The notes below the pieces were generated by a model, which was not told the origin of the DNA, made no database searches, and saw nothing but the letters and a program-made list of their open reading frames with translations. A DNA stretch of 64,000 nucleotides from Somniosus microcephalus (Eukaryota): NCBI GenBank assembly GCA_052327205.1, contig JBMRGM010000038.1, positions 9,300,001-9,364,000 of the forward strand, written 5' to 3'. How positions within the stretch are numbered: the stretch's first letter is position 1; each line of letters opens with the position of its first letter. Of the stretch, positions 13,161-54,467 are shown one piece after another. The position numbers and the translations under genes were made by a program.

Positions 13161-13254
13161 TGTTCGTTGTTCGGTGTGCTCCTGACCCATAAAGTGCAGA
13201 AAGGGCAGCGTCCCATCAGCGGCCTAGTTTTCTGGTGTATCTTTGGACCAAGGT

Positions 13255-16461: not shown

Positions 16462-16513
16462 CACTCCCCGCTTGGTACAATTCCATTGCACCACTACAGA
16501 TACAAAATAAAAC

Positions 16514-20886: not shown

Positions 20887-20941
20887 GGTAGCTGGGTGCT
20901 ATCTTCTTGTGCTTCAGCCCGCTGTGCTGTTGTCTTTTCAC

Positions 20942-23329: not shown

Positions 23330-23720
23330 AGTATGACAATGTCAGGCTCTTCCAATTTTGGCACAAGTCCACAGATGTTAGTGATGAAGACTTTGCAGGT
23401 TTGACTGGGCGTGCCATTTTAAAGCCAAATCTGGTTCCTAGGCCAATGCTGGGGGGTCCATTCAGTTTTATTCTTATTAATGTGTTTCATAGTGGTTTGA
23501 TACAACTGAGTATCTTGCTGGACCATTTCAGAGGAAAATTAAGAGTCAGCATGCTGCTACGTGTCGGGAATCACATATGGGTCACAACAGCAGATTTCCT
23601 TCCCTAAACGACATTAGTGAACCAGATGTGTTTTTAAATCAATCCGGCAGTTTCATGGTCAGCACTCCAGAATTATTTAATTGAATTTAAATTACTCAGC
23701 TGCCGTGGTGAGATTTGAAC
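23330..23720 (-). mobile_element. 5' end of the Zenon-like LINE with a tRNA-like (B-box) head, truncated by an LTR
   Basis: Reverse strand starts GTTCAAATCTCACCACGGCAGCTG and runs into the endonuclease start (NICGLVPKLEE). Confidence 0.65.
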
Positions 23721-25161
23721 TGTAGGGGGCCATCTTTTAACTGGTTTACGTTAATTTACCTTCCTTTACCTGTTTACGGTAATTTACCTGGTCATGGAGC
23801 TTTTTTCCGCTACACTCTGTGACCAATTCCAATCAGCGATTTCGAATCGCTAAACCACCCCTTCCAGTTCTGACTGGAGGCACTTATAATTAATGATATA
23901 TAAAAAACGGACAAATGATCTGGATGAAAGAAAGTCAAACTTTATTAACTAAATAAACTACACCACATGATCAATGTAATCACTGTAAAATTGCTTAAAC
24001 AGGGGAGGGAAAACGGGCATAACGAGGGAAAACGACTAAAATAACAACTCTTAACGAAATTCCTACTTTACCCCCCACCCCTAAGCCTATCATAAGTTGC
24101 CTTGTGGAAGGTCAGAAAAATATATGCTCACCACTATAATGCCAGCTACCTCCATGCCCTGCGTTCTTAGTTCTTCACTGCCCAGAAGTGAAAAACACCC
24201 CAGTGTTTTAAAAGTAAACTGCTGGTGTTTTTACTTCTTCAGACAGACTTCCACGCTGTAGAAGGCACACGGAGGCAGGCGAGAGAGGGAGATGCTCTGA
24301 GAAGCTATCTCTTATACCCCAATTTTGGGGCTGAAATGTTCCTGCCCAAATCCAGAAGTTTCTGGGCTAAAACACAAGGACCCAGACCGTCCCCTGTCTG
24401 GGATGGGTTTGAATAAAGTTGCCATTGTCTGTGATGGCTATCGAAAAAACTGCAGGGGTTTTGAATGTGTCTTCATTCTGGGGCAGAAATGTTCCCGCCC
24501 AAATCCAAGTTCATCTGGGCTAAAACAAAAGGATCCAAACCATCCCCCCCCCCTTTGTCTAGCAATGGGTGATTCAAACCCATTCAACCTTAAACTGTTC
24601 CTTTTCTTAGTCTCAAAGTCTCTTCCGTAGTTTGGGTGTGTCTCATGGTGTGTGATGGGTTTTGAATGGAGTTGGGTTACTAGGTAAACAGAAGCCCTTT
24701 GTCCTGCGGTCACTGAAACCGCAGCCTAAGTGGATAATCCTTTATGTCAACATAAACAAACATTGATTGCCTCTGAAGGGAAGGGACACTCCCTTTTTGA
24801 TTGACAGGATCTGACTGCCACTGCTTCAACCCTCCACCTTTTCACAGACATCCATGAGCTGCTTCCAAGCCTCTTTGTCCTGGGCCATGCTTTTCTGACG
24901 GCCATTTTTCAATTTACCAAACTCAAGGGTACAAATTTTAAGAAAATGTACTGTCTTAAAGTGTGCAAGTTTTACGCAAAGTTCCTCAATTCGGGTGTTG
25001 TCCATGCGCTGCCCAGCTCAATGCAGCCTTTCGCAGTTCTGGGCACGTTTTAAACACTGTCCAACCCAGAGACAATTTAAAGTCACACAAAACTTCGTCC
25101 ATGATGTGGATTAATATTTCCTGATCTTCGGGGGCTGAGGGGGATTTTGTGAACCCCTACA
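23721..25161 (-). repeat. 3' LTR of element 1 (1441 bp)
   Basis: 8-bp terminal inverted repeat TGTAGGGG/CCCCTACA; minus-strand TATA-like GGGGTATAAGA near 24315 and AATAAA near 23941. Confidence 0.93.
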
Positions 25162-27139
25162 TTCCACCCTTTCGATACTTCCAACTTGCTTGCAGCATCC
25201 ACTTGAAGAAGTGAGCAGAATTTTCTGACCCCCGACAAACAACCATCCCCTGTATTAACCTATACCTACCTATCACTGATTCCCCGACCTGTCTATTCCA
25301 CTCAAATCTGAGAAAGACCGTGGTACGGTAGGCATCTACAGATACATCAATTACAAAATGTTACAAGAAGGGGTCTCATACCCCTGCACCACTTGTTACA
25401 TTATTTCATATTACAAAATGTTGCAATCTTAGATATATAATGCAATCAAAATGGTCCCAAGCACGGAGAGGGTCCTACGCCGCTGCACCACTTGTAAGTG
25501 TAAAACAAGATACAAAATCTCCATTAAACATACAAAGCAAAATGCTGAAATAAACCCAACCATCACGTGCCAATGATGGGTTGTGAAATGCGAGTGGTTA
25601 TTGCTCCTCCCACCCGGGCAGTAAATGTTCCTTCCACCCACCCTTTAATTGTCTTAAACCTTTAAAACATACAGAATGGAGTTACAGAACAGTCTGATGC
25701 ACCAGCCCCGAGATGTTCCCTTGTCCCTTTGTGGAGGCGGGTACCTCTCATGTTTCATAGACTAAGACCGGAGAGTATGAGATCAAAACTCCCAGTCCCT
25801 CCCCCTCCCATCTTCCCTCGACTTGCTGGAGAAAATGATGGGTGCCTGTGCAGCGGCCCCCACTGGCCCCACACTCACACTAGGATCCCAGATCCAGCCA
25901 CCCACTCATCCTTCCCAGCCACACTTACACTCCAACTTGGTCCATGGGCCCCAGGTGAGTTCCTCCCTTCACAAACGCACACACGCGACACTTGGGTCTC
26001 CGCCTACCCTTTGCAATCTTTCCCAGGCCAACACCACCACTTCAGGGGAATGCGTCCCTATCTGACAAGGCGCCCGCACTTACCCACCATGACTCCTCAA
26101 AAGCGAGGTCTCCCGCAAGCGAAATTCGGTCAGGATAGTGCTGGGTTGAGGGCCATGCCCCACCCAGCTGGGGCAATCTCTTCCACGTAGGATGAGTAGG
26201 CACGTTCCTCTGGACCCTGTCTGGTTTCTCCTGAAGGTTGCTGCGGGGTCTCCTCCTGGATTTGTCCAGTGACGAGGTGGTCCCCAACATTCTGTAACCA
26301 TATCTTCATTCAATGCCCAGCTCGGGCTGGGCGAACAGGGCTGCTCCTTTGTCGACTCTCCTGCAAAAAACTTAAAACGGCATGAAGCCAGGTCTCTCAC
26401 TGACCTGCTGCCTTAGGTGGAGGCATGGTCAGGTCCCTTAACCTCGGACCAAAATACAAGCATTTGGTGCACTTATAAACTTAAACTTTAACTTAAGCTC
26501 AAACTACTAGTAAAAACAAAACTTAAAATTCAAACACCTTAAAAGCAAGTTATAAACTCAAATGTATAATACAAATGCCACTCGTCTCCGGACGGCCAGG
26601 CTAATCTCTGGTGTCACTGTCGCAGATTACTGCTGCCTGCAATGAAGCTGGACTGATTCCAACTTTTGGTCCCTCACAGCTTATGGCTTCTGATTGCAGA
26701 CCTCTGCCCTTTGGCTTCTCCCTGGTTCGGGGGATCAGCCTACTCCACTGTAAAGTGGGTGACCATCTTATCTCGGGCTTGCGGACCCGCTGAGTTCTTC
26801 TGAGCCGCGTCTCTGTGGGGGAAGCTTTGGCTGATGGAACCTGAGCCTGGGTCGCAGCCCTAGCTGGCTGGGAACCTTCTCCCCCTGATGCCAACAGCCT
26901 GCACTGTTTAATATAACTAGCAGTCTGCTAGTACTCCGGGTTTGTCTCCTTTTTCCTACCTACTCCTGTACTGGGGGCAGGTATTCCCTCACCACCCGCT
27001 GCTGATGGCTGAAAATCTTCCTCTCCAGGTCCAAAACCTGGTATCAGCTCCTCCCATTTGTCCCCTGCAAGAGGGATTGCTATCCCCCGTCCCCAGAGTC
27101 CCACACCATAGGGGGAACCAATCTAGAAGCGGGCTGGGA

Positions 27140-27900
27140 GGCTTGTCCCTTTAAACAGGCAACTGTGCCTGCGCAAACCCCCTCCCCGGAGTCCCATGGC
27201 AGAGGCTGTGAAGCCTCTGTCTTCAGACAGGCAACTGCACCTGCGCAAACCTCCTCCCCAGAGTCGCACGTGAAGCCTCTGTCTTCAAACAGGCGACTGC
27301 GCCTGCGCGGGAAAACCGAAGGGGAGCCGCTGGGGTCACAGGCTGGGGAACCGCGCATGCGCGAAGCTCCTCCTGAGAGTCCTGCAGCACAGGCTGCGAA
27401 GCCTCTGTCTTCAAACAGGCGCCAGCGCCTGTGCGGGAACGCTGAGGGGGAGCCGCTGGGGTTACAAGCTGGGGAACTGCACCTGTGCATTCGATTTCAC
27501 TGAAAAAGGTAGGAAGGACCGCTGGGCCTTCCAAGCAGGCTACTGCGCCTGCACGTATAGACTGGGGAGCAGGGACCTTTAAATGGCCGACTGCGCCTGG
27601 ACAAACCTCCTCCTCGGAGTCCTGCGGCAGAGGCTATGAAGCATCTGTCTTCAAACAGGCGACTGCGCCTGCGCAGGACAACTGAAGATGAGGGGCTGTG
27701 GCCAAAGGCTGGTGGTCTGTGCCTGCGCGAACTTGGTGTTTGGAAACCTCTCCCCTCAGGCGCACGACTGCGCCTGCGTGCACCTGGTCTTGGGAAACCC
27801 CTCCCCTCAAGCGCGCGACTGCACCTGCGTGCACCTCTTGTTCAAAAGACTGGGGAATCCCTGTCTCCAGACTAGCAACTACGTATGCGCGGGCAGTCTT
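27140..27900. repeat. Array of about 12 degenerate repeats (core caggcgactgcgcctgcgc) downstream of integrase
   Basis: Repeated tcttcaaacaggcgactgcgcctgcgc-type units; the minus strand encodes recurrent AGAVACLKTEAS. Confidence 0.85.
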
Positions 27901-30900
27901 TTCTGTGAATGAACTCGCAGCAGCTTGCAGATTTCTACTGTCAGGCTGCTGTTTCTCTGTTTCTGAACTAGATAACTGGTTCAAATTTAAACTTTGGCCA
28001 AAACTTAGGTGCCACTGGGGCGGGGAAGTGTCCCAATTCGTAGGCCGGACAACTTTTCCCTTGAAACAAGCCACAATGCCTGTCCTAACAGCCTGTGATA
28101 TTGAACTTGTATGGTCAGATTTATACAATTTGCATTGGTTGGCGTGGAACCACTTTGTGCACCGGGGTAGTTTTACTGAATAGACCATGGGGCTGGCCCT
28201 ATCAACTATACTATAGGGTCCCATGTAGATTGGCTCTAAACTTCCCACCCAGGCATAGTTTCATACCATCACTAGGTCTCCTAACACCCACTGGTGGCTT
28301 CTGCTGGGCTCGAGCAGCAGCTGGTTATTCCCATGATGCTTCCCCATGCTGTCTGCTGCCTGCCCATAAATTCGTTTGAGGTGTTCCAGGAGGGTTCGGG
28401 TGAATTTATCCTGGCTTATTTCCTGCAGTTGTCCTTCAGTGAGGACTAGGGCAAGGACATGAGTGAAGGTCCTCAGAACTCTGCCGGTCATGAGCTCATG
28501 TGGTGAACGCCCTATACTTTTGGACTGGCTAGCCCGGATCCCCATGAGGATCAGAGGTAGGGTCTCTGCCCATTTTTTGGGTGACCCCGCGACCTCTTTC
28601 CTCAGTCTTTCTTTAAGGGTGTGGTTCATACGCTCCATAATCCCTGAGGGCCGCGGGTTGTAGGCTACGTGCCACTTCCCTTGAATACCAAGCAGCCTGA
28701 GGGTGTTCTGCATGACTTGGCCAGTAAAGTGGCTTCCCTGGTCAGACTCCACGAACTGGGGCAGTCCCCACCGCGAGAACACCTCCTTCGCCAAGATCTT
28801 TGCAGTCCCCATTGCTGTGGCCGTCCTTCAGGGGAAGGCTTCCACCCTTCAGGGGAAGGAAAACACATCCACCAGGATGAGGCAGTATTTGCAGCCTCCT
28901 TGGGTGGTGGGCAAGGGCCCTATATAGTCGATCTGGATCGACTGCCATGGTCCCTCCACCTTCCTAATGTGTCCCATGAGTACCTTCCTTTTGTGGGGAT
29001 CGGGGTTATTTGCTGCACACACAAGACAGCTAGCACAGAACTCACGGACATCATCCTGGAGACCTGGCCACCATCCCGCCTGTTCCACCCATTGCCAGGT
29101 GGTCTCAGGCCCGGGGTGTCCCGCTCACAGCCCCTCATGTGCCAGATGAAGCAACTGCCTCCGGTGTTGCTGGGGTACTACCCACTGTTCCCCCTGAACA
29201 GCATGCCGACCCTTATGGAGCGGTGGGCTGCACCGTAAGGGCCTTCTAACTTCCTGCCCTCCACCACTGCACTCATGACAACTTTCAGGACTGGGTCCTG
29301 GGCTTGGACTGTCTTGAGGTCTGGGGCTAACACTACCCCTGAGCTCCCTTGGGTCCCATCCCTACCTCTAACTGCCGCCACGGGCCCAGACTCATACAGG
29401 TCTCAGATAGTGCCGGTGTGTGCGCCCTCCTTGGCCAGCATGTCGGCTTGCTGGTTTCCCTGGCTGCGGGGTTCTGTGGAAGAATGGGCTTTCACCTTAT
29501 GGATGAAAACTGCACCTTCCTCCCACACAGCTGCCAGGATTTTCTCCAGCAGGGGCTTTACTGTCAAGGGCTTCCCGTCGGCGGAGGTATATCCACGACG
29601 GGACCAGATGGCCAGGTACTCCGTACATGAGCTGCAAGTGAACATACTGTCAGAGCAAATCCTATACGGGGTACGGAAGATGTCGGTGTGTGTAACCACG
29701 TACATCATCGTGGACAGTTCAGCCTGCTGGGCACTCATGGTGTTAGGGAGCTTGTTTGCCAAGGTAATGCCTGCCATTGTGTCAAAGATCCCGCAAACCG
29801 TGAGTCGAACCCCAGCGGATACCATGCTGGAACCATCTACATAGACTCCCAGCCCATAAACCTATGTTGAATTCCCATACCCCATCTATGGAACATCAAT
29901 GGGCTGTTCCAGGGTATACCATGTTGGCCGCAAGCTTTGGCTCGCAAAGGCCCTTTACCTTCATATCCATCTGCGAGAGGAGGAGGTTCCAGCGTGCAAT
30001 GCGGGCACTGCTCACTGTCCCATCTTTAATCCTCCCATCCAAAAGCATCTGGGTGGGTGTGTGGTGTGTGAGGAGGGTGATGGGAGAGGTGCCTGTGAAA
30101 ATTAAAGATCTTTTCACAGCCCAATATGTGGCCAAAAGGTGCCGTTCACAGTTGGAGTAGCTCCTCTCCACATCCGCGAGGACTCTGGAGGAGTAGACCA
30201 CGGGCCTTAGCCTGCTCTGCCGCTCCTGGAGCAGCACAGCACTGAGACTATCCCCGCTGGCTGCTACCTCCAAGAAGAACTCCCTTTTCCCATCTATCGC
30301 TCCTAGGGCTGGTGCGGTCTGCAGGTCTCCCTTTAACTTAACAAATGCTGCCTGGCATCCCTCATCCCAGGACCACTCCACTCCCTTGTGTAGGAGATGG
30401 AGCAGAGGGGCTGCTGTGGCTGCATAGTCCTCTATAAAATCCCTGCATTACCCTGTCAATCCCAGGAACGACCTCACCCCTCTTACTGCATTGGGAATCG
30501 GTAACTCCTGGACCACTTCCCTCCTTGCCCTTTCTCCAGTGCAGACGGCCAGACCCAGGAATTTGACCTCCTGCTGGCCGTTCTGCGCTTTCTTTGGGTT
30601 TACCTTGAAACCACTTTTCCTAAGCAGCTACAGCAGTTCAGCTAATAGTGGGCCGTGCTCCTCTCTTTAATCAGTGAACAGGAGCAGGTCATCCACATAT
30701 TGAACCAACTGTGTGGGCTGGCTGAAATCTTTTAAACTATCTGCCATACACTGGTGGAAGATGCTGGTGCTGTTGTGGAAACCTTGTGGCAGACAGTTCC
30801 AGGTATACTGTTGCCCCTTAAAGGTAAATGCAAACTTGTACTGATCCTCCCTTCTTAAAGGGATGGACCAAAACCCATTAGAAATATCCAGCACCGTGAA

Positions 30901-31772
30901 AAAGTTTGCGGATGCTGGAATGATTCCTATCAGGTCGGCAACTGCTGCCACCGTGAGTGCACGGGCTGGAATATTGCTGTTAAGCACCCGATAGTCCACC
31001 GTGGCTCTCCACGTATTGTCCGCTTTTCTGACAAGCTAAAGCGGAGAGTTAACATGGGTGGCTATGGGCCTCAACACTCCCTGCTGCACCAAAGAGGAAA
31101 TGGCTGCCTCCATGTCGGGTTCTGCCTCCTTGGGGAAATTATACTGCCTTTGGGGCTGGGCCATGGGGTCCCCATCCAATCTAACCTCAAACCCTGTGAC
31201 CCTCCCACAGTCATGTTTATGCATGGCAAATGCAGCTAGATTAGCCTGCACGACTGCCTGGAATTCCCCTGGGACACCCTCGACCATGAGCCCGCGGTTG
31301 TAACCTTCTTTAGGCTTCACAGTGCACCGGGTCCCCTTTCCTTCCTTGCTGGGGATGATTACTACACCTTCCTCTCCACCCGTGTTGGCTCCCCACAGGC
31401 AATGATTGCGGAGATCCACGAGGATCCCGTGGCCCAGCAGGACGTCGGCTCCTAGGTTCCCCTTTCCTCCCTCCGCCTCCCACCTTGCCAGGATACACGT
31501 CCATTCGGTCCGGATCGAGCCCAGGCTGATTGAGAGCGGCTTGGTGTATACCCCCACCTGCTGCTGACCGGTGAATCCCGATATTATGTATGGAACCCCA
31601 TTAGCCAGAGGTGGGGTGAAGTGATCGGATTATCCATATGGATCACGGTGCATGATGCCCACATATCCAATAGATAAGTCCCTGTAACCTTCTCTACCTC
31701 CATCTGCACGAGCGGTCTCTTCCATTCATCGTACCGGAGATTACACAGGTAGACAGGCTGTGTGGGCTATAG
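27634..31772 (-). pseudogene. pol of element 1: protease, RT, RNase H-like tether, RNase H, integrase
   Basis: PR YLLDMWASCTVI (about 31670); RT FTVLDISNGFWSIP, LPQGFHNS, YVDD; tether FFLEVAAS..AVLLQ..RPVVYSSR; RH YVDGS (29843), SAQQAEL, SDS, KVKAH, GNQQADMLAK; IN zinc finger, IQIDYIGPLP, SDQGSHF, MERMN, GPY. Confidence 0.92.
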
Positions 31773-33077
31773 TCATAGTGGGGCGGCAGAGGTGGGTGAG
31801 GGGGCTGCAGCATCATTGATGGCTGCTACCTTTCCATGATTGGCCCTGAGGAAAGATCTTATCGACTCCAGAACGGACTCGACTGTATCGGGAGGAGTTT
31901 CTGTCTCTGCCTTCTGAGCTTGGGTTGCGGGGGCCCTGGCTTTATCGTCTCTTCCAGGCTTTTTACAATCACTGCGCCAGTGGCCTTCCTACCCGCACCT
32001 GTAACAAGTGACCATGTTCTGGGAGGGACAGCTCCCCTCCTGGCGCCACTCTTTCTTATATTGAGCCCCAGGTATAACCTCGTAACCTTACCCTTCTGCT
32101 GGTGGGGTCCCACTATTCCTATCATTCACGGGTGGACCGTACCTCCGTTGTCGGAGCGGGTACACTGGTCCTGGTCCCCGCCTGCCTAGCGGGAACTGCT
32201 GGCATTCTCCTACCACCCCATTGCCCATCCCTTCTTGCTGCCAGAGCTCCTCAAAACTCGGAGCTGTGGGCTGCGGTCTTGTGATCTCTAATTCCCTGGC
32301 CAGCTCTGTTCTGGGTGTTACCTGTGGGGCGGTTTGATTTGGGCTGCTGGTACAATCCGGCTGGGCTGCCTTCGGGCTGATCAGGCAAATCATCCCCTTT
32401 CCACCTTTTAAAGCCATCTTAAGGCTTTCTATCTCTGCCCTACAGGGGCCATGATCTGCTCCACTAAACCTTTGTTCGCAGGCCAGCTTATGAGCTGCCT
32501 TTACCTCAGTAACCCTTCCCTCCTGCTCTGTTACGTCTGAGGTGAGGTGGGCATTCTCTTCCCACAGTCTCATCTCGTTACTCTTTGCTTCTGTAGTTTG
32601 GCACTTTAGGAACTCTATCTTGTGCCTCGCATGGGTTTTGCCCTTGCTATCTTCTTATGTGAGGTGTGCATTTTCCTCCTGTAGCCTCATCTCACTGTCC
32701 CTAGCCTCTGTGATTTCCTGCACAAGGCACTCTATCTCTGCCTGGCATTTTGTGACCGCTAGTGTGAGGCGTGCATTTTCTTCACGCACCTTCATCCCAC
32801 TATCTCTGGCCTCATTCACCTCTCTTATGAGGCGTTCTACCTCGGCCTGGCATTTTTCAAACTCAGACTCCCGATTCTTGGTCTCTGTAACCTCCTCCCA
32901 CATCTCACCCTTCTTAACCCAGCCACCTATAACATAACAGGTCAGCTTACACATTGCTGCTAACTTCTGCAGGGCTACCCACAGACTGAAAGCAAGAAAA
33001 GCAAGAGCTGATGCTCTCTCTAGATCCAGAACACTTATCATATCAAAAACTGCCTCCAGTCCTGCCGCGGTCGCCAA
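31773..33077 (-). pseudogene. Gag-region ORF of element 1: hydrophobic segment, coiled-coil repeats, Pro-rich region, CCHC knuckle
   Basis: ASALAFLAFSLWVAL; repeated KCQAE.E.L..E..EARDS.M...EENA.LT; CYRCG*EGHWRSDC near 31970-32010; several in-frame stops. Confidence 0.8.
33058..33076 (-). promoter_or_regulatory. Primer-binding site, tRNA-Arg(TCG)
   Basis: Plus strand agtcctgccgcggtcgcca equals the 3' end + CCA of vertebrate tRNA-Arg(TCG) as recalled; it lies 3 nt from the LTR. Confidence 0.88.
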
Positions 33078-33079
33078 AT

Positions 33080-35213
33080 TGTAGGGGGCATCTTTTACCT
33101 GGTTTATGGTAATTTACCTTCCTTTACCTGGTTTATGGTAATTTACCTGGTCATGCAGCTTTTTTCCACTGCACTCTGTGACCAATTCCAATCAGCATTT
33201 TCGAATTGTTAAACCACCCCTTCCAGTTCTGACTGGAGGAACTTATAATTAATGATATATTAAAAACGGACAAATGATCTGGATGTAAGAAAGTCAAACT
33301 TTATTAACTAAATAAACTACACCACACAATCAATGTAATCACTGTAAAAATGCTTACACAGTGGAGGGAAAAACGGGCATAATGAGGGAAAATGACGAAA
33401 AAATCAATTCTTAACGAAATCCCACTTTACCCCCCACCCCTAAGCCTATCCTAAGTTGCCTTGTGGTAGGTCAGAAAAATGCCAGTTACCTCTGTGCCCT
33501 GCGATCTTAGATCTTCACTGCCCAGAAGTGAAAAACACCCCAATGTTTTAGAAGTAAACTGCTGTGGCTAGAAATTGACTTTGGGGCGGCCAGCTCGCTT
33601 GCGCCCAGAAATTACCGCTGCGCGCGGGGCCACTTGCGCCCACCGGATATTCAGTTTCAGCACCCCAAGTCGAAGCCGGCCGCAAAACTAGGGTTTCGGC
33701 GCCCCCACTTGGGGCGCTGAAACTGAATATCGGCACGCTAAGTGCCGCAGCACCACCTGCTGCGGAGCGGCAGGCTGCGGTACTGCAGGCCTTCCTCCCT
33801 CTCTTAAGGGGGAGGTGCCTGCAACAGCGCAATCGCCACTCGCTAGTGCCGGCAAATGAGCCCGGCACCACGGAGAAGTGCCGGGTCCCGGAAAACAGCC
33901 GGCAATGTCGCGGGGGGGGGGTCGAGGAGGCCGGGGAAGGAGGTGTGGGAAGGCGGCCGCTGAAAAAGCGGCCGGCCGCACATCCGCCTTAACTCGCCCC
34001 ACTACCGCATCAGGTAGGTCCCGTTTTCTGGTCGCTGTATGCGGCCGCCGCGGAAGAGGCGGCCGCAACTCAATATGGCGGTCGGGCCGGTAGCAGGGCG
34101 GTAGCGGGGCACTGCGCACACCGATGACGTCATCGGTGGTGGCGCAGCGCTGCTGGCTAATGCCGCCATTACCGCACCGCTGAATATCGGGGGAAGTTTA
34201 GCAAGTGGCGCAAAAGCCCTCTTTGGGCGAAAACTGGGCGCAAAGCCAACCGAATTTCTAGGCCCTGGTGTTTTTACTTCTTGAGACAGAATTCCACGCT
34301 GTAGAAAGCACACGGAGGCAGGCAAGAGAGAGAGAGAGGGATGCTCTGAGAAGCTATCTCTTATACCCCAATTTTGTGGCCAAAATGTTCCCGTCCAAAT
34401 CCAGAAGTTTCTGGGCTAAAACAAAAGGATCCAAACCCTCCCCTCTCTGGGATGGGTTTGAATAAAGTTGCCATTGTCTGTGATGGCTATCGATAATACT
34501 GCAGGGGTTTTGATGTCTCTTCATTCTGGGGCCGAAATGTTCCCACCTAAATCCAAGTTAATCTGGGCTAAAACAGAAGAATCCAAACCGTCCCCCCTAC
34601 CCTTTGTTTAGTAATGGGTGATTCAAACCCATTCAATCTTAAACTGTTCCTTTTCTTAGTCTCAAAGTCTCTTCCGTAGTTTGGGTGTGTCTCATGGTGT
34701 GTGATGGGTTTTGAATGGAGTTGGATTACTAGGTAAACAGAAGCCCTTTGTCCTCCGGTCACTGAAACCGCAGCCTAAGTGGATAATCCTTTATGTCAAC
34801 ATAAACAAACATCGATTGCCTCTGAAGGGAAGGGAAACTCCCTTTTTGATTGACAGAATCTGACTGCCACTGCTTCGACCCTCTCCCCCTTTTCACAGAC
34901 ATCCACGAGCTGCTTCCAAGCCTCTTTGTCCTGGGCCATGCTTTTCTGACGGCCATTTTTCAATTTACCAAACTCAAGAGTACAAATTTTAATAAAATGT
35001 ACTGTCTTAAAGTGTGTGAATTTTTCCACAACGTTCCTCGATTCCAGTGTTGTCCACGTGCCGCCCATCTCAACGCAGCCTTTTGCGTTTCTGGGCACAT
35101 TTTTAAACATTGTCCAACCCAGAGACAATTTAAAGTCACGCACAGTCTCTGTCCACGATGTGAATTAATATCTCCAGTATCTTCGGGGCTGAGGGATTTT
35201 GTGAACCCCTACA
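33080..35213 (-). repeat. 5' LTR of element 1 (contains a MITE insertion)
   Basis: Collinear with 23721-25161 apart from the 700-bp insert. Confidence 0.93.
33565..34264. mobile_element. GC/CpG-rich MITE, probably PIF/Harbinger type
   Basis: Absent from the sister LTR; imperfect TIR tggctagaaattg / gaatttctaggcc; 3-bp TSD CTG (33562-33564 and 34265-34267). Confidence 0.85.
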
Positions 35214-39973: not shown

Positions 39974-41217
39974 TGTAGAAATAGGGGGGGGGGTGTAATG
40001 GGGTTATTGTCTCTGGCCAGTCAGAAGTATCTGAGCTGCTCCAGAGCCCCGTGTCATTTCGAATCGCTCCCCTTTTCTGGTTCTGACCGCCGGAATACTT
40101 CAGTAGCAATATAGACAAAACGAGACTCATGGTTGGGTGCAAAGAAGACCAGCATTTATTGAAATAAAGAATAAATTGAAAATAATGATGAATACAGCGC
40201 ACTTTTGCTTAATACAGCATTTTTTGCTTAATACAGCACACCTTTGCTTGATACAGCACACCTTTGCTTGATACAGCACACATTTGCTTAATACAGCACA
40301 CCTTTGCTTAATACCGCACTTTTAATTAACACAGCACACTTTTGCTTAATAGGGGAGGAGAAATGGACATTTCGAGCAACAATTGACTAAAATAACGATT
40401 TAACAAAATTCACCTTAATTCGCACCCCTAATAGTTATCTAGGTTGCCTTGTAATGGGCCAGAAAGTTTCATGCTCACTAGTAAACGCCTGCTCCGTTCC
40501 CCTGCGCTCGGTCTTGGGTTCTTCACTGCCCCAAAGTAGAGATACCCAGTAGTTCAAAAGTAACTGCTGGTATTCCACTTCTTTGGGCGGGCTATTGAGC
40601 TGTTCTTCTTGTCGGCAGGGCACGGAAGTGAGGCGGCAGAGAGAGAGAGAGAATGGCTTCCTGAGGGACTATCTTTATACCCCATTGGGAGCCGTTGTCT
40701 TTGCACCCAAATCTGCATGCATCTGGGCTATACAAAAGGGACCGAACTGTCCCCATTGATTGTAATGGGTTTGAATGTGTTGGCCCATTCATTTTAACTG
40801 GTTTTCGACCAGTTTGAAATGTCCTACTGAATTTCAGTCAACAGCACTCAAGTGTTTGTAAACAAAGCATTGTCCTGCGGTCACCGCCCAACCGCAATTG
40901 AAATACAGCTTTAAGTACTTTAGCCTTTGATTCATCATTGTAGAGAGTTCTGTAAACAAACATACTTCGTTCTGTGCGTGAAACTTCCTAAGCTGCAGTT
41001 GATTGACAGTTTCAAGTACTTCAACATTCACACAGGCTGGTGTTTTCAAATCCTTTTGTAAGCCAGTGATGCGAGAGGCTGTCTTTGTCTTCTGCAATGA
41101 GGCCTGGCAGCCATTTTGATACCCTGGGTTTTTAAGGTATATTCCACCCAGGTTTTCTTTAATCTAAAATAATCTTCGGGGCTGTAGAAATTTTCCAAAA
41201 TTTTTGCAAACCTTACA
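39974..41217 (-). repeat. 3' LTR of element 2 with an internal 20-bp tandem repeat
   Basis: Collinear with 43989-46658; (cacctttgcttaatacagca)n at about 40190-40350. Confidence 0.92.
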
Positions 41218-42638
41218 GTCCCCCATTGAATACTAAAACTTGCTTGTAGTATCCTGTTCAAAGGTGAGCAATAATTTCTGACCCCCCACAAACAACCTTC
41301 CCTTATGCTTATCGATACCTATCTTGGATCCCCCGACACCTCCATCCCCCTTACCCAGAGAGAATCGCAGCACACGGTAGGCACCTATTGATAGAAAAAC
41401 ATGATTAGTTACAATCATTTAAACATGGAGGGGGTCGAATGCCCCTGCAACACTGAGTATTTACAATAGTTCAAGCATAGAGGGGTCCAATGCCCCTGCA
41501 CCACTTGTGACATAGTTTTAACATGATACAACATCTTTAATGGGATTACCACTAAGCCAAAACATGCCTGATAAAAATACTAATGGAAGAAAACCAGCTT
41601 CCTTTTCTCTTTTTTTTATAATGCAATTGCCTGACACTTTAATAAATGGCACCATTCTTCAGCCATAAATGTATTTCAAATTTCCACAATCTGCAAAAAC
41701 AACAATTCACAGTCATATGCAATTTCTTTTTCAATTGACTCCAAACAAATAGTACAATCTTACAGTTAGGAACCAAATTCACACATTATTTCCTTTGGAG
41801 TTGGGACCAGTACATAATGCAGAATATAAAATGATTAACAAGCTTTTTGTAAACTCTTAATCTTAACCTGAATTTCCAATAACAGTTTAATTGCTGTGGG
41901 CATCTGTCTCCTGCAGACCCCACCCTTCGTGGGCTAGGGCTGCTCCCTTCCCCGAGCATCTAAAGAAACAATGGTCCTCTGCACCTTCCGAAACTCTGAA
42001 AAAGATTTTTTTTAAACACATCTAGCCAGGTTCCCTGGCTCGGGGGAATGTGATCAGGTACCACGACCTCGGCTCATATAGACAACACTCTGGAACGCTA
42101 CCATACTTAAAACTTATACTCTAATAATTTACACTACCGAATTGCAATATAAAATTAAAATTAAAACATTCTAACTTAATCCTCTATACACGTTACTTGA
42201 ACAAATCTATTTACAAGTGCCGCCCATCTCTGGGCGGCCAGCCTAATCACTGTTTGGGCTGCCACAGGCTGCTCGCTGCGGCATGGGTGGACTGATCCCA
42301 AATTCTCGTCCCTCGCACCTTATGGCTGCTGGTTGGGGACTTCTGTCATTTGGCTTCTCCTCTCATGCACACGACTACGCCTGCATGTGCAGTCTGTGTG
42401 AGTGTATGCGCTGCAGGCTGAGGATTTCTATTCTCAGGTTCAATCCCAGCCGCCCATTTCCCTGCCTCCGGCTTAAACAACCTGTAGTGTTTAATATAAC
42501 TGGCAGCCTGCCAGTTCCCCTGTTCTAAATCCTTTCCCCTTACCAGGGCAGCCTTAAAGTTGGAATCTTGGGCCTGGACCTGCTTTTGGCCCGGGGCCAA
42601 AACTATCCCCTGTGTGCCTCCGTTGTCCTGGATTGCTG

Positions 42639-43986
42639 CTACCGAATCTGCTCTACAGGGGTCCCAGAACTCTCCTTCCCTGTCCCCCTGCTTAGCAACT
42701 TACACTGGACATGAATGACTCCTCCCCTAACACAAGCCACAGCGCCTGTCTGTGCAGTCTGTGAGCTTGTACCCGCTGCGGGCTCAGGATTTCTGACCTC
42801 AGGTTCACTCCCAGCTGCCCGTTTCCCTGTGGGTCCCATGAAGCTAACTGGGACCTTTTTAGACCGGGGTGAATTGGTCAGGTCTTCCGAGTGGACCACC
42901 ATGCTGGAAGCTCCAGTGTCCACCGAATATCTCCCCTGCCCCGTCTTCACCCCCATCTTAACATAGGGCCTGCTCCCCTCAGCATTTTCGTGGGGACACA
43001 GGTCGACAGGCTGTGCTGGCTCTAGCCATTGCTGGGAGCGGGATGGGGCAGACATGGTCAAAGCACCAGTGGTGGCTGCTATTTTTCCCTGGCTGGCTAG
43101 GAGGAGAGATCGTAGGGACTGTAAAAATGACTATCGCTGCGGGAGGGATATCTGGCCCTGCCTTTTGGGCTGCGGCTGTGGGATCCTTTCCCTTGTTATC
43201 CTTCCAGGGATTCCTACAGTCTTTTCTCCAGTGACCATCTTTCCCGCACCCATAACAATTTAACCGAGCCTGGGAGGGACGGTTCCCCTCCTGTTGCCAG
43301 TCTGTCTTACTCTGGCTCCCAGGTTTAACCTCATGGACTTTTCCCTTGGTTTGGGGCGTCTCGATACCCCTCATCTTTCTCGGAGCTCTGGGTGGCGGTC
43401 GTGGGACCTCTGATTCCCTGACCAACCTTGTTCTGGGTGTTGCCTATGGGACAGTTCTATTTGGGTTGCCGGTAAATTCCGACTGACCTGTCTTCGGGCT
43501 GATAAGACATATCATCCCCTTTGCCCTCTTTAAATCCATATTCAAGCTTTCTCTCTCTTCCCTACAGGGGCCATGATCTGATTCCTCAAAACTTTGGTCG
43601 CAGGCCAGCTTATACGCTGCCTTTACCTCCCAAACCTTTTCCTCCTGCTCTTTTACTTCTTCTATGAGGCGGGCGTTCTCCTCCCACACACTCATCTCAT
43701 TGCTCTTGGCCTCTGCAACTAGGCACTTCCGGTACTCTAATTCATACCTCGTGTGGCTTTTGCCCTCAATAAACTGGACCACCAGGTGCTCTATCTTGGC
43801 TTGGTATTCTTCAATCTCCCTTTCCTTATCCCAACTCTCTGCTCTAACTTCCCTAAGCCTGTGGGAACCTAACCACAAACAGATCAGTGGGATTAAAAGA
43901 AATCCAATAATGGCTGCTCTCTCCAGACCCAAACCACCGTCTGTCACATCGCAAACTGTTGCTGCTGGTCCTGCCACAGTCGCCAT
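42639..43986 (-). pseudogene. Gag-region + protease of element 2
   Basis: 43444..43986 AAIIGFLLIPLICLWLG + coiled coil; 42979..43425 CYGCGKDGHWRKDC; 42639..43061 YSVDTGASS. Confidence 0.85.
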
Positions 43987-43988
43987 TT

Positions 43989-46658
43989 TGTAGAAATACG
44001 GTGGGTGGGTTCTTTGATTATTGTCTCTGGCCAGTCAGGAGTATCTGAGCTGCTCCAGAGCCCCGTGCAGTTTTGAATCGCTCCCCTTTTCTGGTTCTGA
44101 CCACCAGACTTATTTCAGTAGTGATATAGAGAAAACAAGACTCGTGGTTGGGTGCAAGGAAGACCAGCATTTATTGAAATAAAGAATAAATTGAAAATAA
44201 TGAAGAATACAGCACGCTTGTGCTTAAGACAGCCTACCTTGGCTTAATACAGCACACCTTTGCTTAATATAGCACACCTTTGCTTAATACAGCACTTTTA
44301 CTTAAGACAGCACACTTTTGCTTAATAGGGGTGGAGAAACGGACATATCGAGGGAAAATTGACAAAAATTACAATTTAACAAAATTCCCGTTAATTCCTA
44401 CCCCTAGTACCTATCTAGGTTGCCTTGTAATGGGTCAGAAAATCCTTGCTCACCAGTGAACGCCTGCTCCGTGCCCCTGCATTCTGTATTCTTCACTGCC
44501 CCGAATTAGAGATACCCCAGTAATTAAAACTAACTGCTGGTATTCCACTTCTTCAGGCAGGCTACTGAGATGTTCTTCTTGTAGGCAGGGCATCGGAGGC
44601 AAAGCGGCAGAGAGAGAGAATGGTTTCCTGAGGGATTATCTTTATACCCCATTGGGAGCCGTTGTCTTTGCACCCAAATCTGTTTTTTAATTTTTTTTAT
44701 TAATTGATGGGATGTGGGTGTCGCTGGCTGGCTAGGCCTACATTTAGTGCCCATCCCTAATTGCCCTTGAGAAGATGGTGGTGAGCTGCCTTCTTGAACC
44801 GCTGCAGTCCATATGCTGCAGGTACACCCACAATGCTGTTAGGAAGGGAGTTCCAGGATTTTGGCCCAGCGAAAGTGAAGGAACGGCGATGCAGGTCCAA
44901 GTTAGGGTGGTGTGTGGCTTGGAGGGGAACTTTTAGGTGGTGATGTTCCCATGCGTCTGCTGCCCTTGCCCTTCTAAGTGGTAGAGCTCGCGGGTTTGGA
45001 AGGTGCTGTTGAAGGAGCTTTGGCGAGTTGCTGCAGTGCATCTTGTAGCTGGTACATACTGCAGCCACAGTGCACCGGTGGTGGAGGGAGTGAATGTTGA
45101 AGGTGGTGGATGGAGTGCCAATCAAGTGGGCTGCTTCATCCTGAATGGTGTCGAGCTTCTTGAGTGTTGTTGGAGCTGCACTCATCCAGGCAAGTGGAGA
45201 GTATTCCATCACACTCCTGACTTAGCCTTGTAGATGGGGGAAAGGCTTTGGGGAGTCAGGAGGTGAGACACTCGCCGCAGAATTCCCAGCATCTGGCCTG
45301 CTCTTGTAGCCACAGTATTTATATGGCTGGTCCAGTTCAGTTTCTGATCAATGGTAACCACCAGGATGTTGATAGTGGGGGATTCAGCGATGGTAATGCC
45401 ATTGAATGTCAAGCGGAGATGGTTAGACTCTCGCTTGTTGGAGATGGTCATTGCCTGGCACTTGTGTGGTGCGAATGTTACTTGCCACTTGTCAGCCCAA
45501 GTCTGAATGTTGTCCAGGTCTTGCTGCATATGGACACGGACTGCATCAGTATCTGATGAGTCTGGAATGGGGCTGAACAGTGTGCAATCATCAGCGAACA
45601 TCCCCACTTCTGGCCTTATGATGGAGGGAAGGTCATTGATGAAACAGCTGAAGATGGTTGGGCCTAGGACGCTGCCCTGAGGAACTCCTGCAGTGATATC
45701 ATGTGATTGAGATGAATGACCTCCAACAACCACAGCCAACTTCCTTTGTGCTAGGTATGATTCCAACCAATGCAGAGTTTCCCCTTGATACCCATTGACT
45801 TCAGTTTTGCTAGGGCTCCTTGATGCCACACGTGATCAAATGCTGCCTTGATGTCAAGGGCAGTCACTCTCACCTCACCTCTTGTGTACAGATCTTTTGT
45901 CCATGTTTGGACCAAGGCTGTAAACAGGTCAGGAGCTGAGAGGCCCTGGCGGAACCCAGACTGGGCGTCAGTTAGCAGGTTATTTCTGAGTAAGTGCCGC
46001 TTGATAGCACTCTCGATGACACCTTCCATCACTTTGCTGAAGATTGAGAGTAGACTGATGGGATGGTAATTGTCCGGGTCGGAGTTGTCCTGCTTTTTGT
46101 AGACAGGACATACTTGGGCAGTTTTCCACATTGCCGGGTAGATGCCAGTGGTGTAGATGTACTGGGCTATACAAAAGGGACCGAACTGTCCCCATTGACT
46201 GTAATGGGTTTGAATGTGTTACCCGATTCATTTTAACTAGTTTTCGACCAGTTTGAAATGTCTCACTGACTTTCAGTCAGCAGCACTCAAGTGCTTTGTA
46301 AACAAGCATTGTCCTGCAGTCACTGCCCAACCGCAATTGATTGACAGCTTTAAGTACTTGAGCCTTTGAGTCAACATTGTAGAGAGTTCTGTAAACAAAC
46401 ATTCGTTGTCCTGTGGGTGAAACTTCCTAAACTGCAGTTGATTGACAGTTTCAAGTACTTCAACATTTGCGCAGGCTGGTGTTTTTTTCAAATCCTTTGT
46501 CAGCCCATGATTGAAGATATACAGGCAGGCTGCCTTTGTCTTCTGCCATGAGGCCTGACAGCCACTTTGATCCCCTGGGTTTTTAAGGTATATTCCACCC
46601 AGGTTTACTTTCATCAGAAATAATCTTCGGGGCTGCAGAAATTTTGCTAAACCTTACA
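43989..46658 (-). repeat. 5' LTR of element 2, interrupted by a LINE
   Basis: LTR sequence stops at gcacccaaatctg (44682) and resumes at ctgggctatacaaaaggg (46162). Confidence 0.9.
44683..46161 (-). mobile_element. 5'-truncated Zenon-like CR1-group LINE
   Basis: RT motifs QSGFRQG, LDIKAAFD, GVPQGSVLGP, FADD, MEYSPLAW; A-rich tail at 44683-44705; no TSD. Confidence 0.9.
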
Positions 46659-48076
46659 TACCTTACTATTTTCTTACATTAGTGCTATCCCTTTTTCCAT
46701 GTCCGTTGTGCACCTTGTTTTTTCTTTCTATTGGTACATCCTGGTGACCATACCCATGCCAACTTAATTTTAATTTCTCCCCAACAAGACTAGCAAACAT
46801 CCCCATGAGGAAAGTGATACCAGCTCTGTTGGACTGCAACCCGTGCGGCCTGTACTGGACCTACCTCCCCCAGAACCAGCCCCAAAGCCCCAGGAATCTC
46901 ATCCATCTTTCTACATATGTCATTGGTACCGCTATAGACCTCGAGCTCTGGCTGTTCTCCTTCCTCCCTCCGTATATTCTACAGCTGCTCAGTGACATCC
47001 TTGACCCTGGCACTGGGGAGGCAGCATTCCATCCTGGAGTCATGTCTGTCCTCCTCTCCCCTCTAACGGTCACCCATTCCCTCTCTGTCTGTACACTCCT
47101 TAGCTGTGGGGTGACCACCTCCTGAAACATGCTGTCCATGTACTGCTCAGCCTCATGAATGCACAACAGTGACGCCAGCTGCTGCTCAAGCTCCGAAACC
47201 CAGAGCTTGAGCTCCTCCTATTGACAACACTTCCCACATACGTGGTTGTCCAGGACACGGGAAGCGTCCTGGATTTGTCACATGGCACAGGATGCAGATT
47301 CCGTGGGACTGAGCTGCCCTGCCATGCCTTTATTGATTCTGCTATTAATTAAATTTACAGAAAATTAAGACTAAGATGTACCTAATTAAATGTATTCACT
47401 TCCAGCACACGTGTTCGCCCTGGACACTGAATGTGTCCCTGACTTCCCACCTAGCACAGGAGCTGAGCTGCCTTACCAGGTCCTGCCCTTGATTTATTCC
47501 ATTTACGTCCTCTAAATTAAAGAATATTTGAAACACTAGGGACCTTCTTCACTTTAAACACTACTCACACTAAACTAGAGACCTTACTTTTACTTTAGCG
47601 ACCGGACTGTAGAAATACTCACCAATCAGCTCCTTCCCTGGTTGTGATGTCATTTTAGTGGTTTTGCAGCTGTTGTTGTTGTTTGACTGCTCCTGCTCTC
47701 CGACTCTTTTCTGGGTGTAAAGTAAGAACCAAATCCTACAGAGTGAAAAGTTAGGGAAAGAAAAGGTGAAGCAAGGGAGCTGCTCCTCCTTCCACTCCTC
47801 CCCCACCTAATTCCCTCACTCACCCAACTCTCAGCGCTCTGTGCAGATCACACTGCAAAGCCTGTTTTTAGTGGCCTAGATTCCCTAGTTAACTGCCTTC
47901 AGCTGCTCTGAATTATTCTCTGCCTTCTCCAGGGCTGTAGACTCCTTTCAGTTTGGAATTCAGGAGAACTTGGTTCGTGGTTTGCAGAAACTATGACTTA
48001 GATCAGCAGTTGTGACCGGGCTGGAGCCACCAGGTGCCTGACTGCAATCAGTGACAATGATGTGCAACTTGAGCAG

Positions 48077-48655: not shown

Positions 48656-49341
48656 GTGTTAATGGCATTTCTGCAGCTCATCACTTCCGCATTGAGAAAG
48701 TTTCAGACTGGGAGCTTGTTCAATGCTGCTCGAAGACTCAGTGGCCGGGATATCATCTCCCCCGGGGTTTTCCTGAGCCTATGTTCGGTGTATGGGGAGG
48801 TTTGGCCCGGGTCCCTGGTATCTTGCAGCCCAGGTATTGACAATAACAATCTGAGCTCTGAAGTTGGGGAAGAGCGAATAATTAATGGGTTTGTTTCTGC
48901 ATCTGAACTGCGACTTAGATCTGTTGGCATTAACGGAGGCCGGGGCTGTGAATTATAACATTTTGTTGTCATTTAATCAGAGGAATATCCACAATCAGGA
49001 GCTGATAAGGATCATGAGCTGAAAAAAACACGACAAAAATGATAAGAAATGTCAGCAATTGTGATAAACCGTTTAATGTGTTTTCTGGTAGCGTATTAGT
49101 TCAAATGTTTTAATCACCATTCATTAACCGATACCATCACTCTGCAGAATGAAAGAAATGCTCAAACTGAGGGGCAGTCAAAACTTCAATAATTTGCGAA
49201 ACATTATTCATTGATGAAGTTTTATCCCCTATCTGAAATTACACACTATGTATTTTAGGAGGTTTGTTTAAAATATTCATTGCTTCTGATACAAGGAACC
49301 AGTTAAATTAATTTCACAGAAAAAATACACTTGAACATAAT

Positions 49342-49436
49342 GGCCCCGAATTTCGGGTCTCCACGGGTGAGTACGCATGGGGTACTCACCCGTAGGCCCA
49401 ATGGAAGTGCCGGTTTTCTGCATGCACTGCGCAGAT
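49342..49436. mobile_element. Probable MITE end truncated by the satellite
   Basis: ggccccgaatttc resembles the TIR of the 33565 MITE; followed by a perfect 12-bp hairpin. Confidence 0.45.
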
Positions 49437-52400: not shown

Positions 52401-54249
52401 AGACAGACATACTGACAGACAGGCAGACCAGGCATATGGACAGTCAGACAGACAGATGAGACAGACATGACAGTAAGACAGACAGACCAGACATACATAC
52501 AGACAGTCCAACAGGTAGACAGGCAGACATAAAGACCATACAGATTTGACAGACCAGACAGACAGAATGACAGAGAGACAGATCGACAGCAAGACAGGCA
52601 GTCCAGACTGAGAGACCAACAGACAGGCAGACAGATCATCAGACAGAATGACTGAGAGACAGACAAGACAGACAGGCAGACAGATATTCAGAGAGAAAGT
52701 AAAGGCAGCCCAGATGGACAGACGGACAGACCATGAGTCAAACAGACAGACAGAACAAAGAAGAAACAGATAGACAGAGAGACAGCCAGACCAGGCAGAC
52801 AAAAGACCAACAGCCATACAGATAGAAAGAGACAGACCAGACACACCAGACACACCAACAGACCAGGCATAACACACAGACCAACAGATAGACAGATAAG
52901 ACTGACCTGACAGTGAGAGAGACAGATAGACCAAACAGATAGAGAGACCAGACAGTCCAGACTGACAGACAGACAATCTAGACAGAAGAGAAAGAGAGAC
53001 CGAGAGGCTGAGAGACAGGCTGACATAAAGATAAGACAGATCAGACAGACAGACAAGCAGACCGACAGACAGGCAGCGAGATAGACAGAGGAGACAGACA
53101 GAACAGACAGACATACAGTCAGACCAGCTGACAGGCAAACATGCAAATAGACAGACAGAGAGCGCAGACAGACAGACACATCAGACAGGCCAGACAGGCT
53201 GACAGACAGACAGACCAACAGACAGACATGCAGATAGACAAATAGACAGAGAGGTCAGACAGGCAAGACAGACAGACTGACAGACAGACAGTCCAAACAG
53301 AGCAGACCGACAGACAGACAGACAGACAAGACAGAACAACAGAGAGAAAGATTGACAGACCAGATGTACCAGGCAGATAGGCAGACCAACAGACAGGCAG
53401 ATAGGTATATCAGAGAGTGCAGAGTGACAGAACAGACAAATAGACCCGACAGAACAGACAGACAGACGGACAGAGAGACCGACAGAAAGAATAACAGATA
53501 CACAGAACGACAGGCCAGACAGGTCAAGCAGAGAAATTGACAGACAGACAATCCCAACAGACCAGACAGACAGACAGAAAGACAGACTGTCAGACTAGAC
53601 AGAACGACATACAGAAAGACTGACAGACCAGACGTACCAGGCAGAGAGACAGACAGACAGCTAGAAATACCAGGCAGTCCAGAGAGACAGAAAGAGAGAA
53701 AGACAAGACAGACTAGGCAGACAGACAAGCAGACCGACAGACAGGCAGACAGACAGAAAGACAGAGAGGCAGACAAATTAACCAGACAGACCAGAGAGAC
53801 ACACAGGCCAACGGACAGACAGACCAGGCAGATAGACAAACAGACCAGATAGACAGACAGACCTGGAGACTGACAGACAGCCAGAGAGTACAGACAGACA
53901 AGCAGACTGACGGACAGGCAGTGAGATAGAACGATGGATAAGACAGTCCAGACCGACATACATACAGGCAGACAATCCAAGCAGAGCAGACAAACAGACA
54001 GACCAGACAGAGCGACAAACAGAAAGACTGACAGACCAGACAGATAGACAGACCAACAGACAGGCAGATAGACATATCAGACAGTGCAGAGCGACAGACC
54101 AGAGAGAACATACAGACAGAGAGAGACAGCCATGCAGATAGACAGAATGACAGGCCAGAAGGGTCAAACAGACAAATTGACAGACAGACAATCCCAATAG
54201 ACGAAACAGACAGACGGAAAGACAGACAGACAGACCAGAGAGAACGCCA

Positions 54250-54330
54250 TACAGAAAATGCTGGACCAACTCAGCAGGTCAGGCAGCATTTGCAAAATGA
54301 GAAACAGAGTTAACGTTTCAGGTCGATGAA
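54250..54330 (-). mobile_element. Penelope pLTR fragment inside the satellite
   Basis: acagaaaatgctgg..actcagcaggtcaggcagcat..gaaacagagttaacgtttcaggtc matches 9420-9500. Confidence 0.8.
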
Positions 54331-54467
54331 TTACACAAACGGAAAGAATGACAGAGCAGACGTACCAGGTGCAGAAAGACTGACAGACCAGATGTACCAG
54401 GCAGAGAGACAGACAGACAGACAGACAGATAGATAGACAGACCAGACAGTCCAGACAGACAGACAAG

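Follow-up and report, generated by a model that had tools for sequence, protein, structure and literature searches.

The 180-codon open reading frame (ORF) that the initial annotation picked out on the minus strand of the window, by which we mean the whole 64,000-nucleotide stretch of Somniosus microcephalus DNA analysed here, is the front third of a Gag protein of about 553 aa, and its start codon straddles the edge of the primer-binding site (PBS) of an LTR element. The reading that we favour, with somewhat more confidence than doubt, is that this Gag belongs to a lokiretrovirus-like element and is probably started at the PBS ATG, and that in two sub-families without env a predicted membrane anchor has apparently replaced an ancestral soluble N-terminal domain and would tether Gag to internal (ER) membranes for intracellular assembly. 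By analogy, the best reading would be an IAP-like switch to intracellular life, reached independently. The finding would be a known retrovirus-to-retrotransposon route in variant form, and its interest lies in the pattern across the family more than in the single ORF.

The window holds two insertions of the family (elements 1 and 2; Table 1), and both of these copies are broken. The LERA motif, the hydrophobic stretch, the E/K/R/Q-rich heptad region and the DHGPC...KGMICLISPK block described earlier are indeed found in both. The two LTRs of element 2 are 82-87% identical, with an AATAAA about 190 nt upstream of the PBS inside the 5' LTR, and the best heptad register of its predicted coiled coil has hydrophobic residues at 57% of a/d positions vs. 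28% of the others. No intact env was found between pol and the 3' LTR of element 1. Its integrase (window 26607-27900; pol residues 1230-1420 in copy L140) extends into a tail of about 200 aa with internal repeats, and this tail is retained even where pol is deleted. In what follows, F1 and F2 are the sub-families of elements 1 and 2, and F3a-c and F4a-c are soluble-domain relatives in the same genome, found by searching it with two database homologs that have a soluble N-domain instead of the helix.

Elements 1 and 2 occur at equal spacing (window 23718-46666) in five near-identical copies (four places on contig C38, and contig C35), and this part of the window is therefore a segmental duplication. 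The window also contains a further element at 15720-21669, with 742-bp direct repeats at its ends (94% identical) and minus-strand ORFs at 16785-20898, as well as a 15-kb degenerate GACA-type satellite (49300-64000) and a 78-bp tandem array (12475-13164).

Table 1. Parts of elements 1 and 2, with positions in the window.
Feature	Position	Strand	Remark
Element 1 5' LTR	33080..35213	-	interruption at about 33565-34264
Element 1 TTG + tRNA-Arg(TCG) PBS	33059..33077	-	in Gag frame, read as in element 2; spacer ATT; TTG at 33077; PBS 33076-33059
Element 1 in-frame ATG, codon 13	33039..33041	-	likely start in TTG-type copies
Element 1 hydrophobic segment	32949..33014	-	homologous to element 2 segment
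Element 1 gag	31778..33077	-	stops + capsid deletion near 32120
Element 1 pro-pol (PR, RT, tether, RNase H, IN, tail)	26607..31766	-	stops + frameshifts present
Element 1 3' LTR	23718..25161	-	
Element 2 5' LTR	43989..46666	-	pieces 43989-44682 + 46162-46666, separated by later insertions; LTR end = 43989
Element 2 3-nt LTR-PBS spacer, AAA	43986..43988	-	43988-43986; final A = A of ATG
Element 2 tRNA-Arg(TCG) PBS	43968..43985	-	43985-43968; also codes for Gag codons 1-6
Element 2 Gag codons 1-180 + premature stop (ORF of the initial annotation)	43444..43986	-	ATG 43986-43984; stop at 43446-43444
Element 2 predicted transmembrane helix, codons 24-40	43867..43917	-	acidic side before, basic after; predicted N-out/C-in
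Element 2 predicted coiled coil, codons 44-125	43612..43857	-	46% E/K/R/Q
Element 2 junction of 702-nt in-frame deletion, capsid domain removed	43380..43381	-	identical junction in 5/26 copies
Element 2 CCHC zinc knuckle (nucleocapsid)	43213..43260	-	in the ORF's frame; PF00098, E 3e-4
Element 2 protease remnant + C-terminal pol tail	42252..43025	-	RT, RNase H, integrase core deleted
Element 2 short remnant, env 5' end	41901..41982	-	
Element 2 3' LTR	39974..41216	-	

Predicted anchored and soluble forms of Gag

The hydrophobic segment proved to be conserved, with a 19-residue Kyte-Doolittle window of at least 1.6 in 65 of 68 F2 copies and 46 of 47 F1 copies. The F1 helix is the weaker of the two (median 1.74, as against 2.00 in F2), and the soluble-domain Gags tested reach 0.4-1.2 in such a window, i.e., nothing comparable. 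In F2 the core of the helix has a mean hydropathy of 2.66 over 15 residues, none of them charged; the helix includes a proline, is preceded by a tail of about 23 aa and is directly followed by three or more K/R. The F1 tail, counted from codon 13, is only about 9 aa long, the helix beginning about 10 residues after Met13, and F1 variants hold their hydrophobicity despite sequence turnover. Net charge is more positive after the helix in 66/68 F2 and 47/47 F1 copies. Taken with the positive-inside rule, this asymmetry leads us to predict, from hydropathy and charge, an N-out/C-in topology in which capsid and nucleocapsid would stay cytoplasmic. The signal anchor proposed in the initial annotation therefore stands in part: the flanking charges fit it, but it is not family-wide, as the helix is confined to F1 and F2 and the env-bearing relatives have a soluble domain at that place.

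The F1 and F2 helices are homologous, with 27/35 nt identical between copies of the two sub-families (0/2000 shuffles; 48/5000 at the protein level), and two independent gains of the anchor were rejected as the default for this reason. Borrowing of the anchor from the signal peptide or TM segment of env was also rejected, no DNA match being present in 28 long loci, and no anchor-type Gag was found in the protein databases. In a structure model (pLDDT 77), the soluble N-domain consists of four helices that lead into the coiled coil. Fold searches with it (viral, PDB and wide) returned no significant match (best Z 6.0, coiled-coil rows only) and nothing among matrix proteins, and the Atlas gave only unnamed clusters. 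The domain is "matrix-like" by position only, and the missing fold match does not show that its fold is new.

The helix could instead be a remodelled helix of the old N-domain, serving in peripheral membrane binding or oligomerisation and not spanning the membrane, with env lost separately in the same ancestor. The motif ahead of the helix resembles motifs that open helices 1 and 4 in the soluble domain, hydrophobicity is no more than moderate in the F1 helix, and one origin would yield the same correlation between anchor and env. We nonetheless regard this as unlikely in view of the strongly hydrophobic, uncharged F2 core, the hydrophobicity that F1 variants keep through turnover, the asymmetry of the flanking charges and the weak result of comparing profiles with the soluble domain, where the leader drives the probability of 49%.

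Another possibility is that the anchor acts in place of Env by taking Gag to the plasma membrane, allowing cell-to-cell spread in the manner of the FAST-like sORF2 of Drosophila MDG1-group elements. In the available part of its description, sORF2 has an N-out/C-in helix and a basic patch, and its criteria are a stand-alone ORF of 60-210 aa and the motif MGxxxS/T (bioRxiv 2025.03.14.642691). The likeness consists of an env-less LTR element and one N-out/C-in helix (predicted here) with a basic patch after it; the F2 tail, its single helix and the K/R residues that follow agree with the topology criteria in that part of the preprint, and the anchor appears where env is lost. However, sORF2 is a separate small protein that is often myristoylated, whereas the shark helix is fused to Gag without such a motif, the F1 tail is short and no homology was found, all of which makes this a decidedly improbable reading. 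An outright sORF2/FAST-like protein was rejected, as the helix is part of a 553-627 aa Gag and there is no Gly at position 2.

Glyco-Gag is a known product type, and a cleavable signal peptide or a type II anchor would give a lumenal Gag of that kind which does not form a capsid. The TTG-type F1 helix does lie at a distance from Met13 like that of a signal peptide, and Ty1 Gag has been reported to enter the ER lumen (PMC3945221, in the part available). This alternative seems slimmer still, since the charge asymmetry indicates C-in, F2 has no common second start that would yield a cytosolic Gag with the coiled coil, and the capsid and nucleocapsid regions remain under purifying selection. A predicted N-out/C-in anchor with capsid and nucleocapsid facing the cytoplasm is the form of the protein that we adopt below.

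Affinity and loss of env

The arrangement gag-pol-env between two LTRs is seen in the F3 relatives, F1 and F2 being env-deleted derivatives. A tether and a second RNase H (PF17919/PF17917, then PF00075) are present in element 1 and L140, and among named homologs Pol comes closest to a frog "NYNRIN-like" protein (42%). Read directly from the translations, Env of L143 and L146 has a signal peptide, an RXK/RR site, a coiled coil and a TM segment. Its top Atlas match is a PF00523 cluster (Mononegavirales F; score 0.93, 205 features); a Pfam scan and a PDB search found no match of Env to PF00523, the genome family search was blank, as was its control, and thus carries no weight, and the Env structure model has a pLDDT of 27. 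A PDB profile search for a capsid fold like that of MLV/Ty3 CA matched the zinc knuckle only, and what we take to be an MHR-like motif is visible. In the RT and tether tree the lineage forms a clade outside the Gypsy-type and gamma/epsilon-type homologs, in a tree where long branches meet and no named Loki reference is included. Architecture, the F-protein-like Env match, the NYNRIN-like Pol homolog and the position of RT would together fit a lokiretrovirus-like element, which is filed as Loki-like only because no Loki reference was placed in the tree.

In PDB, Pol matches Ty3, MLV-type and foamy RT best (E 1e-52 to 1e-69), with HIV-type RT chains at about 1e-14 to 1e-16. IAP is a mouse class II element with a betaretrovirus-like Pol, and descent from it was rejected because Pol here is closer to the Ty3, MLV-type and foamy RTs than to the HIV-type. 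Ty3/Gypsy (Metaviridae) was rejected too, on account of the dual RNase H and an RT outside the Gypsy-type cluster.

Lokiretroviruses, in the part of PMC7947760 available, share with the shark lineage gag-pol-env between LTRs, a tether plus RNase H, an Env with a signal peptide, an RXXR site and F-protein likeness (here an Atlas match), a NYNRIN-like Pol homolog and an N-terminal coiled coil ("smc"). They differ in that their LTR-adjacent primer sites are of a type other than Arg, with T or A as the preceding base, five of their Gag N-termini have no PBS-coded start or obvious hydrophobic anchor, and one of their Gag C-termini has no CCHC knuckle (PMC7947760, same part). One cartilaginous-fish row of that paper gives lokiretroviruses in 0/3 genomes. 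The available parts of PMC9040795, PMC12440569, PMC8278194 and bioRxiv 2023.10.26.564294 contain nothing on the Gag of this lineage.

In each of the 16 F3 loci examined, 36-100% of an env of about 790 aa is retained; seven of them fall under 60%, so that env decay also occurs in soluble-domain copies. None of the 40 F1 and F2 copies read to the 3' end (20 of each, from 51 loci, the end not being reached in 11) keeps more than an env stub of up to about 110 codons. In F4, env was present in 4/12 stretches, the 3' ends being outside the check. Anchor-bearing copies are without env and soluble-domain relatives have it. This correlation, of more interest than the features noted at first, was missed by the initial annotation. 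Degraded env DNA in F1, together with an F1 RT that clusters with those of env-bearing families, means that env was lost and not originally absent. No small separate TM ORF was found in place of env in eight F1 copies or in element 1. RT is complete in 9/26 F1 loci and 2/25 F2 loci. In L096 (5211-5420) and L150 (5284-5480, both in element orientation) a divergent env starts directly past the F2 3' LTR with near-identical flanks, which is probably an insertion into the env of another family that was later duplicated; being outside the 3' LTR and of a divergent type, it was left out of the counts.

Rooted on the distant homolog, the tree nests F1, F2 and F3 inside soluble-domain lineages (100/98), and the anchor is therefore derived. 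F2 was sister to F3b (97/97) before F4 was added and is unresolved once F4 is included (four rows were dropped for low coverage in the former tree and five in the latter), and monophyly of F1 and F2 is not rejected (AU p 0.51). With homologous helices and that result, a single event in the ancestor may account for the coupling of anchor and env loss. F2 has its leader and the end of its pol deletion in common with F3b and its proximal coil in common with F1; it is likely to be of recombinant origin. Env pieces of this lineage also occur inside skate and sawshark gene models (P0040-P0042) named Niban-like and cadherin-related-like, which would be either exonisation or an annotation artefact.

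Where Gag begins and where it ends

The PBS matches a tRNA-Arg(TCG) gene of the genome plus CCA at 18/18 positions in element 1 and 16/18 in element 2. In element 2 its overlap with the ORF's ATG, as originally described, is confirmed at 43986-43984, the codon being formed where the last A of the spacer joins the TG of the PBS. Chance does not explain this: among the first 100 listed of 315 exact F2 junction matches, 98 have A immediately before the PBS. Conservation and coding constraint extend to both the ATG and the frame that runs open through the PBS: after 4 loci without a match and 6 duplicates were removed from the 75 F2 loci examined, 63 of the 65 distinct copies have the ATG. It is likewise present in 46/47 F3a copies. 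Among the F3 and F4 leaders (67 rows examined, 4 without a PBS, 48 distinct left), 37 measure exactly 71 nt from PBS to second Met, 35 of these with the ATG. In the 11 F4c leaders the PBS is preceded by T, and the frame is lost in 10 of them; 10/11 (e.g., L199, L203, L214) also carry one extra PBS base relative to the tRNA, with L205 retaining the exact 18-mer.

For element 1 the initial annotation calls for a correction: the same frame does run through the PBS with TTG, but TTG is usual in F1 and the ATG lies at codon 13. Of 492 F1 matches, the first 100 listed have T (88), A (10) or C (2) directly before the PBS. An in-frame ATG stands at codon 13 in 46/47 copies of the main, mostly TTG set, and the codon-13 ATG is missing in 5/10 copies with a PBS ATG vs. 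1/47 mostly TTG copies (Fisher p 3e-4, copies not independent). In TTG-type F1 copies, codon 13 is likely to be the start.

Four tRNA-Arg genes (TCG twice, ACG and CCG) each match one PBS type at 18/18 positions, and the first six Gag residues therefore vary with the primer; all four PBS types are free of stops in the Gag frame. A distant Gag homolog from another source, 33% identical, also opens with a PBS-coded peptide. The PBS-overlapping ATG, common to F2, the soluble-Gag sub-families and the distant homolog, is a trait of the lineage. Other features of this region can be recorded here. At the third PBS position, 13/65 F2 copies and many F1 copies have A in place of G, which is not a CpG change. 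A Cys near codon 12-13 recurs in F2, F3, F4 and homolog P0002 and not in F1, and is possibly an acylation site or an RNA constraint. Contig C35 holds, at about 1.58-4.4 Mb, a tandem array of tRNA-Arg(TCG) genes with a unit of about 1.6 kb (341 exact matches genome-wide); the arrayed tRNA is the primer for F1 and F2.

Use of the PBS ATG for translation is likely when its conservation, the maintenance of frame, in-frame indels, the substitution pattern and codon-13 reciprocity are taken together. Over the first 113 codons of F2, the two indels shared between copies (+3 nt, 16 copies; +21 nt, 6 copies) preserve the frame, and every frameshift is a singleton. Non-CpG pN/pS over seven Gag regions gave 40 synonymous and 50 non-synonymous shared substitutions vs. 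178 and 578 singletons (Fisher p 6e-5), amino-acid changes being rarer among shared than among singleton substitutions overall, with the helix alone not significant (5/3 vs. 12/25, p 0.23); these p-values are overstated because copies are not independent, and the copies were chosen for long open frames. The next in-frame Met of F2 lies mostly at codon 56-57 or about 98, downstream of the helix. The 200 nt upstream of the PBS hold no conserved ATG except one in 14 copies, and an ATG common to many copies lies 190-400 nt upstream. Two raw RNA runs under another organism label, low in depth, on both strands, mostly <95% alike and of opposite strand bias, had no clear 5' end and were not used as evidence.

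Very improbably, the ATG is a passive, unused by-product of a spacer ending in A and Gag begins downstream. The ATG is dispensable in most F1 copies and in F4c, soluble-domain Gags keep a second Met 24 codons downstream, and integrase processing may fix the spacer base. Yet where the ATG exists the frame is kept and where it is absent the frame is lost, the F1 PBS ATG is reciprocal with that at codon 13, and F2 has no other common start ahead of the helix. A Gag started in the PBS remains our reading. The earlier contention that such a start leaves no room for a packaging leader was overstated, as R-U5 gives a 5' UTR of at least about 190 nt and Ty1 packages from within GAG. In the available part of PMC5454406, the PBS and packaging signals of Ty1 are inside GAG; with its PBS already within gag, the missing post-PBS leader is not itself new. 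The literature search, with Repbase and subscription journals outside its scope, found no description of this family, of a TM-anchored fish Gag or of a PBS-overlapping gag start, and a conserved start codon inside the primer site was thus not found in print.

At its other end, the frame does not stop at 180 codons. The 6.4-Gb genome was searched with the element 2 ORF (150 scored matches of 19,594 candidates) and 26 distinct element 2-type copies were compared, a count that omits four near-identical duplicates of the window's own insertion. Full copies contain the coiled coil, then a capsid-like region and the CCHC knuckle, and the Gag length given for the lineage is 553-627 aa. The 180-aa length is peculiar to the window insertion, in which a stop and the capsid deletion cut Gag short. 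A spliced intron was rejected as an explanation of the deletion, whose ends are without GT-AG in register. The same capsid-less deletion recurs in L011, L012, L020 and L027, where it fuses anchor, coiled coil and zinc knuckle, and the copies that have it form an amplified capsid-less derivative. Beyond Gag, pro is in frame after TGA-CTAG or TGA-CTGG in 40/44 gag-pro junctions found (copies L091-L188). We take TGA followed by CTAG or CTGG to be a readthrough context, and the junctions point to UGA readthrough for Gag-Pol. The separate 180-aa accessory membrane protein implied by the initial annotation, with which the stop at 180 aa in the window copy and its four near-identical duplicates would agree, is effectively refuted by the 24/26 distinct copies that are open at codon 181 and continue to capsid or nucleocapsid.

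A probable variant of a known route

The closest parallel is the mouse IAP, in which a change of the Gag N-terminus coincides with env loss while the env-bearing IAPE persists, and the new signal takes Gag to the ER membrane via SRP without translocation (PMC2791754, PMC4643047, PMC3945221 and PMC12992720, in the parts available). In the shark lineage, too, Gag has acquired a hydrophobic N-terminus, env has been lost, and relatives in the genome that retain env have a different Gag N-terminus. It differs in being an unrelated lineage in an unrelated host, in the Gag start in the PBS and in the long coiled coil that follows the anchor, and its ER targeting is only predicted. Ty1, with its PBS at nt 95-104, a 53-nt 5' UTR and Gag taken to the ER by SRP (PMC5454406, PMC3945221, in the parts available), likewise has the PBS within the GAG coding region and ER targeting of Gag (predicted here), but its PBS lies about 40 nt downstream of the AUG and does not overlap it, its Gag has no TM segment and it is a Copia-type element.

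We propose the following course of events. The PBS codes for Gag codons 1-6 with the ATG in an A(-3) context, and ribosomes would start there, or at codon 13 in TTG-type copies, as conservation suggests. The helix would then insert with capsid and nucleocapsid on the cytoplasmic side. Among the copies compared, the anchor goes with absence of env and the soluble domain with its presence; if the analogy with IAP holds, retargeting of Gag would have made Env useless, with spread by retrotransposition. An annealed primer tRNA would cover the start codon, and priming and Gag translation would then be mutually exclusive on each RNA. A tentative extension, to which we give rather less than even odds, is that a switch from translation to packaging is provided by the primer tRNA: the ATG and the first six codons of Gag would be re-copied from host tRNA-Arg and also covered by it. 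It is a long shot that this switch is combined with an env-less integral-membrane Gag whose anchor replaces Env, particles passing between cells without a fusion glycoprotein.

Lokiretrovirus-like elements may extend to cartilaginous fish, for which the row of PMC7947760 mentioned above, in the part available, shows none. The PBS start codon makes it possible to test directly whether Gag translation is gated by the primer tRNA or by host 3' tRNA fragments, and it offers a testable example of a viral N-terminus that shifts in sequence with the primer isoacceptor. If the anchor targets internal membranes, a lineage and host very remote from those of IAP would have taken the same route independently, and the presence of env-bearing relatives, env-less autonomous copies and pol-less copies in one genome suggests that the gain of an ER anchor may be a general route.
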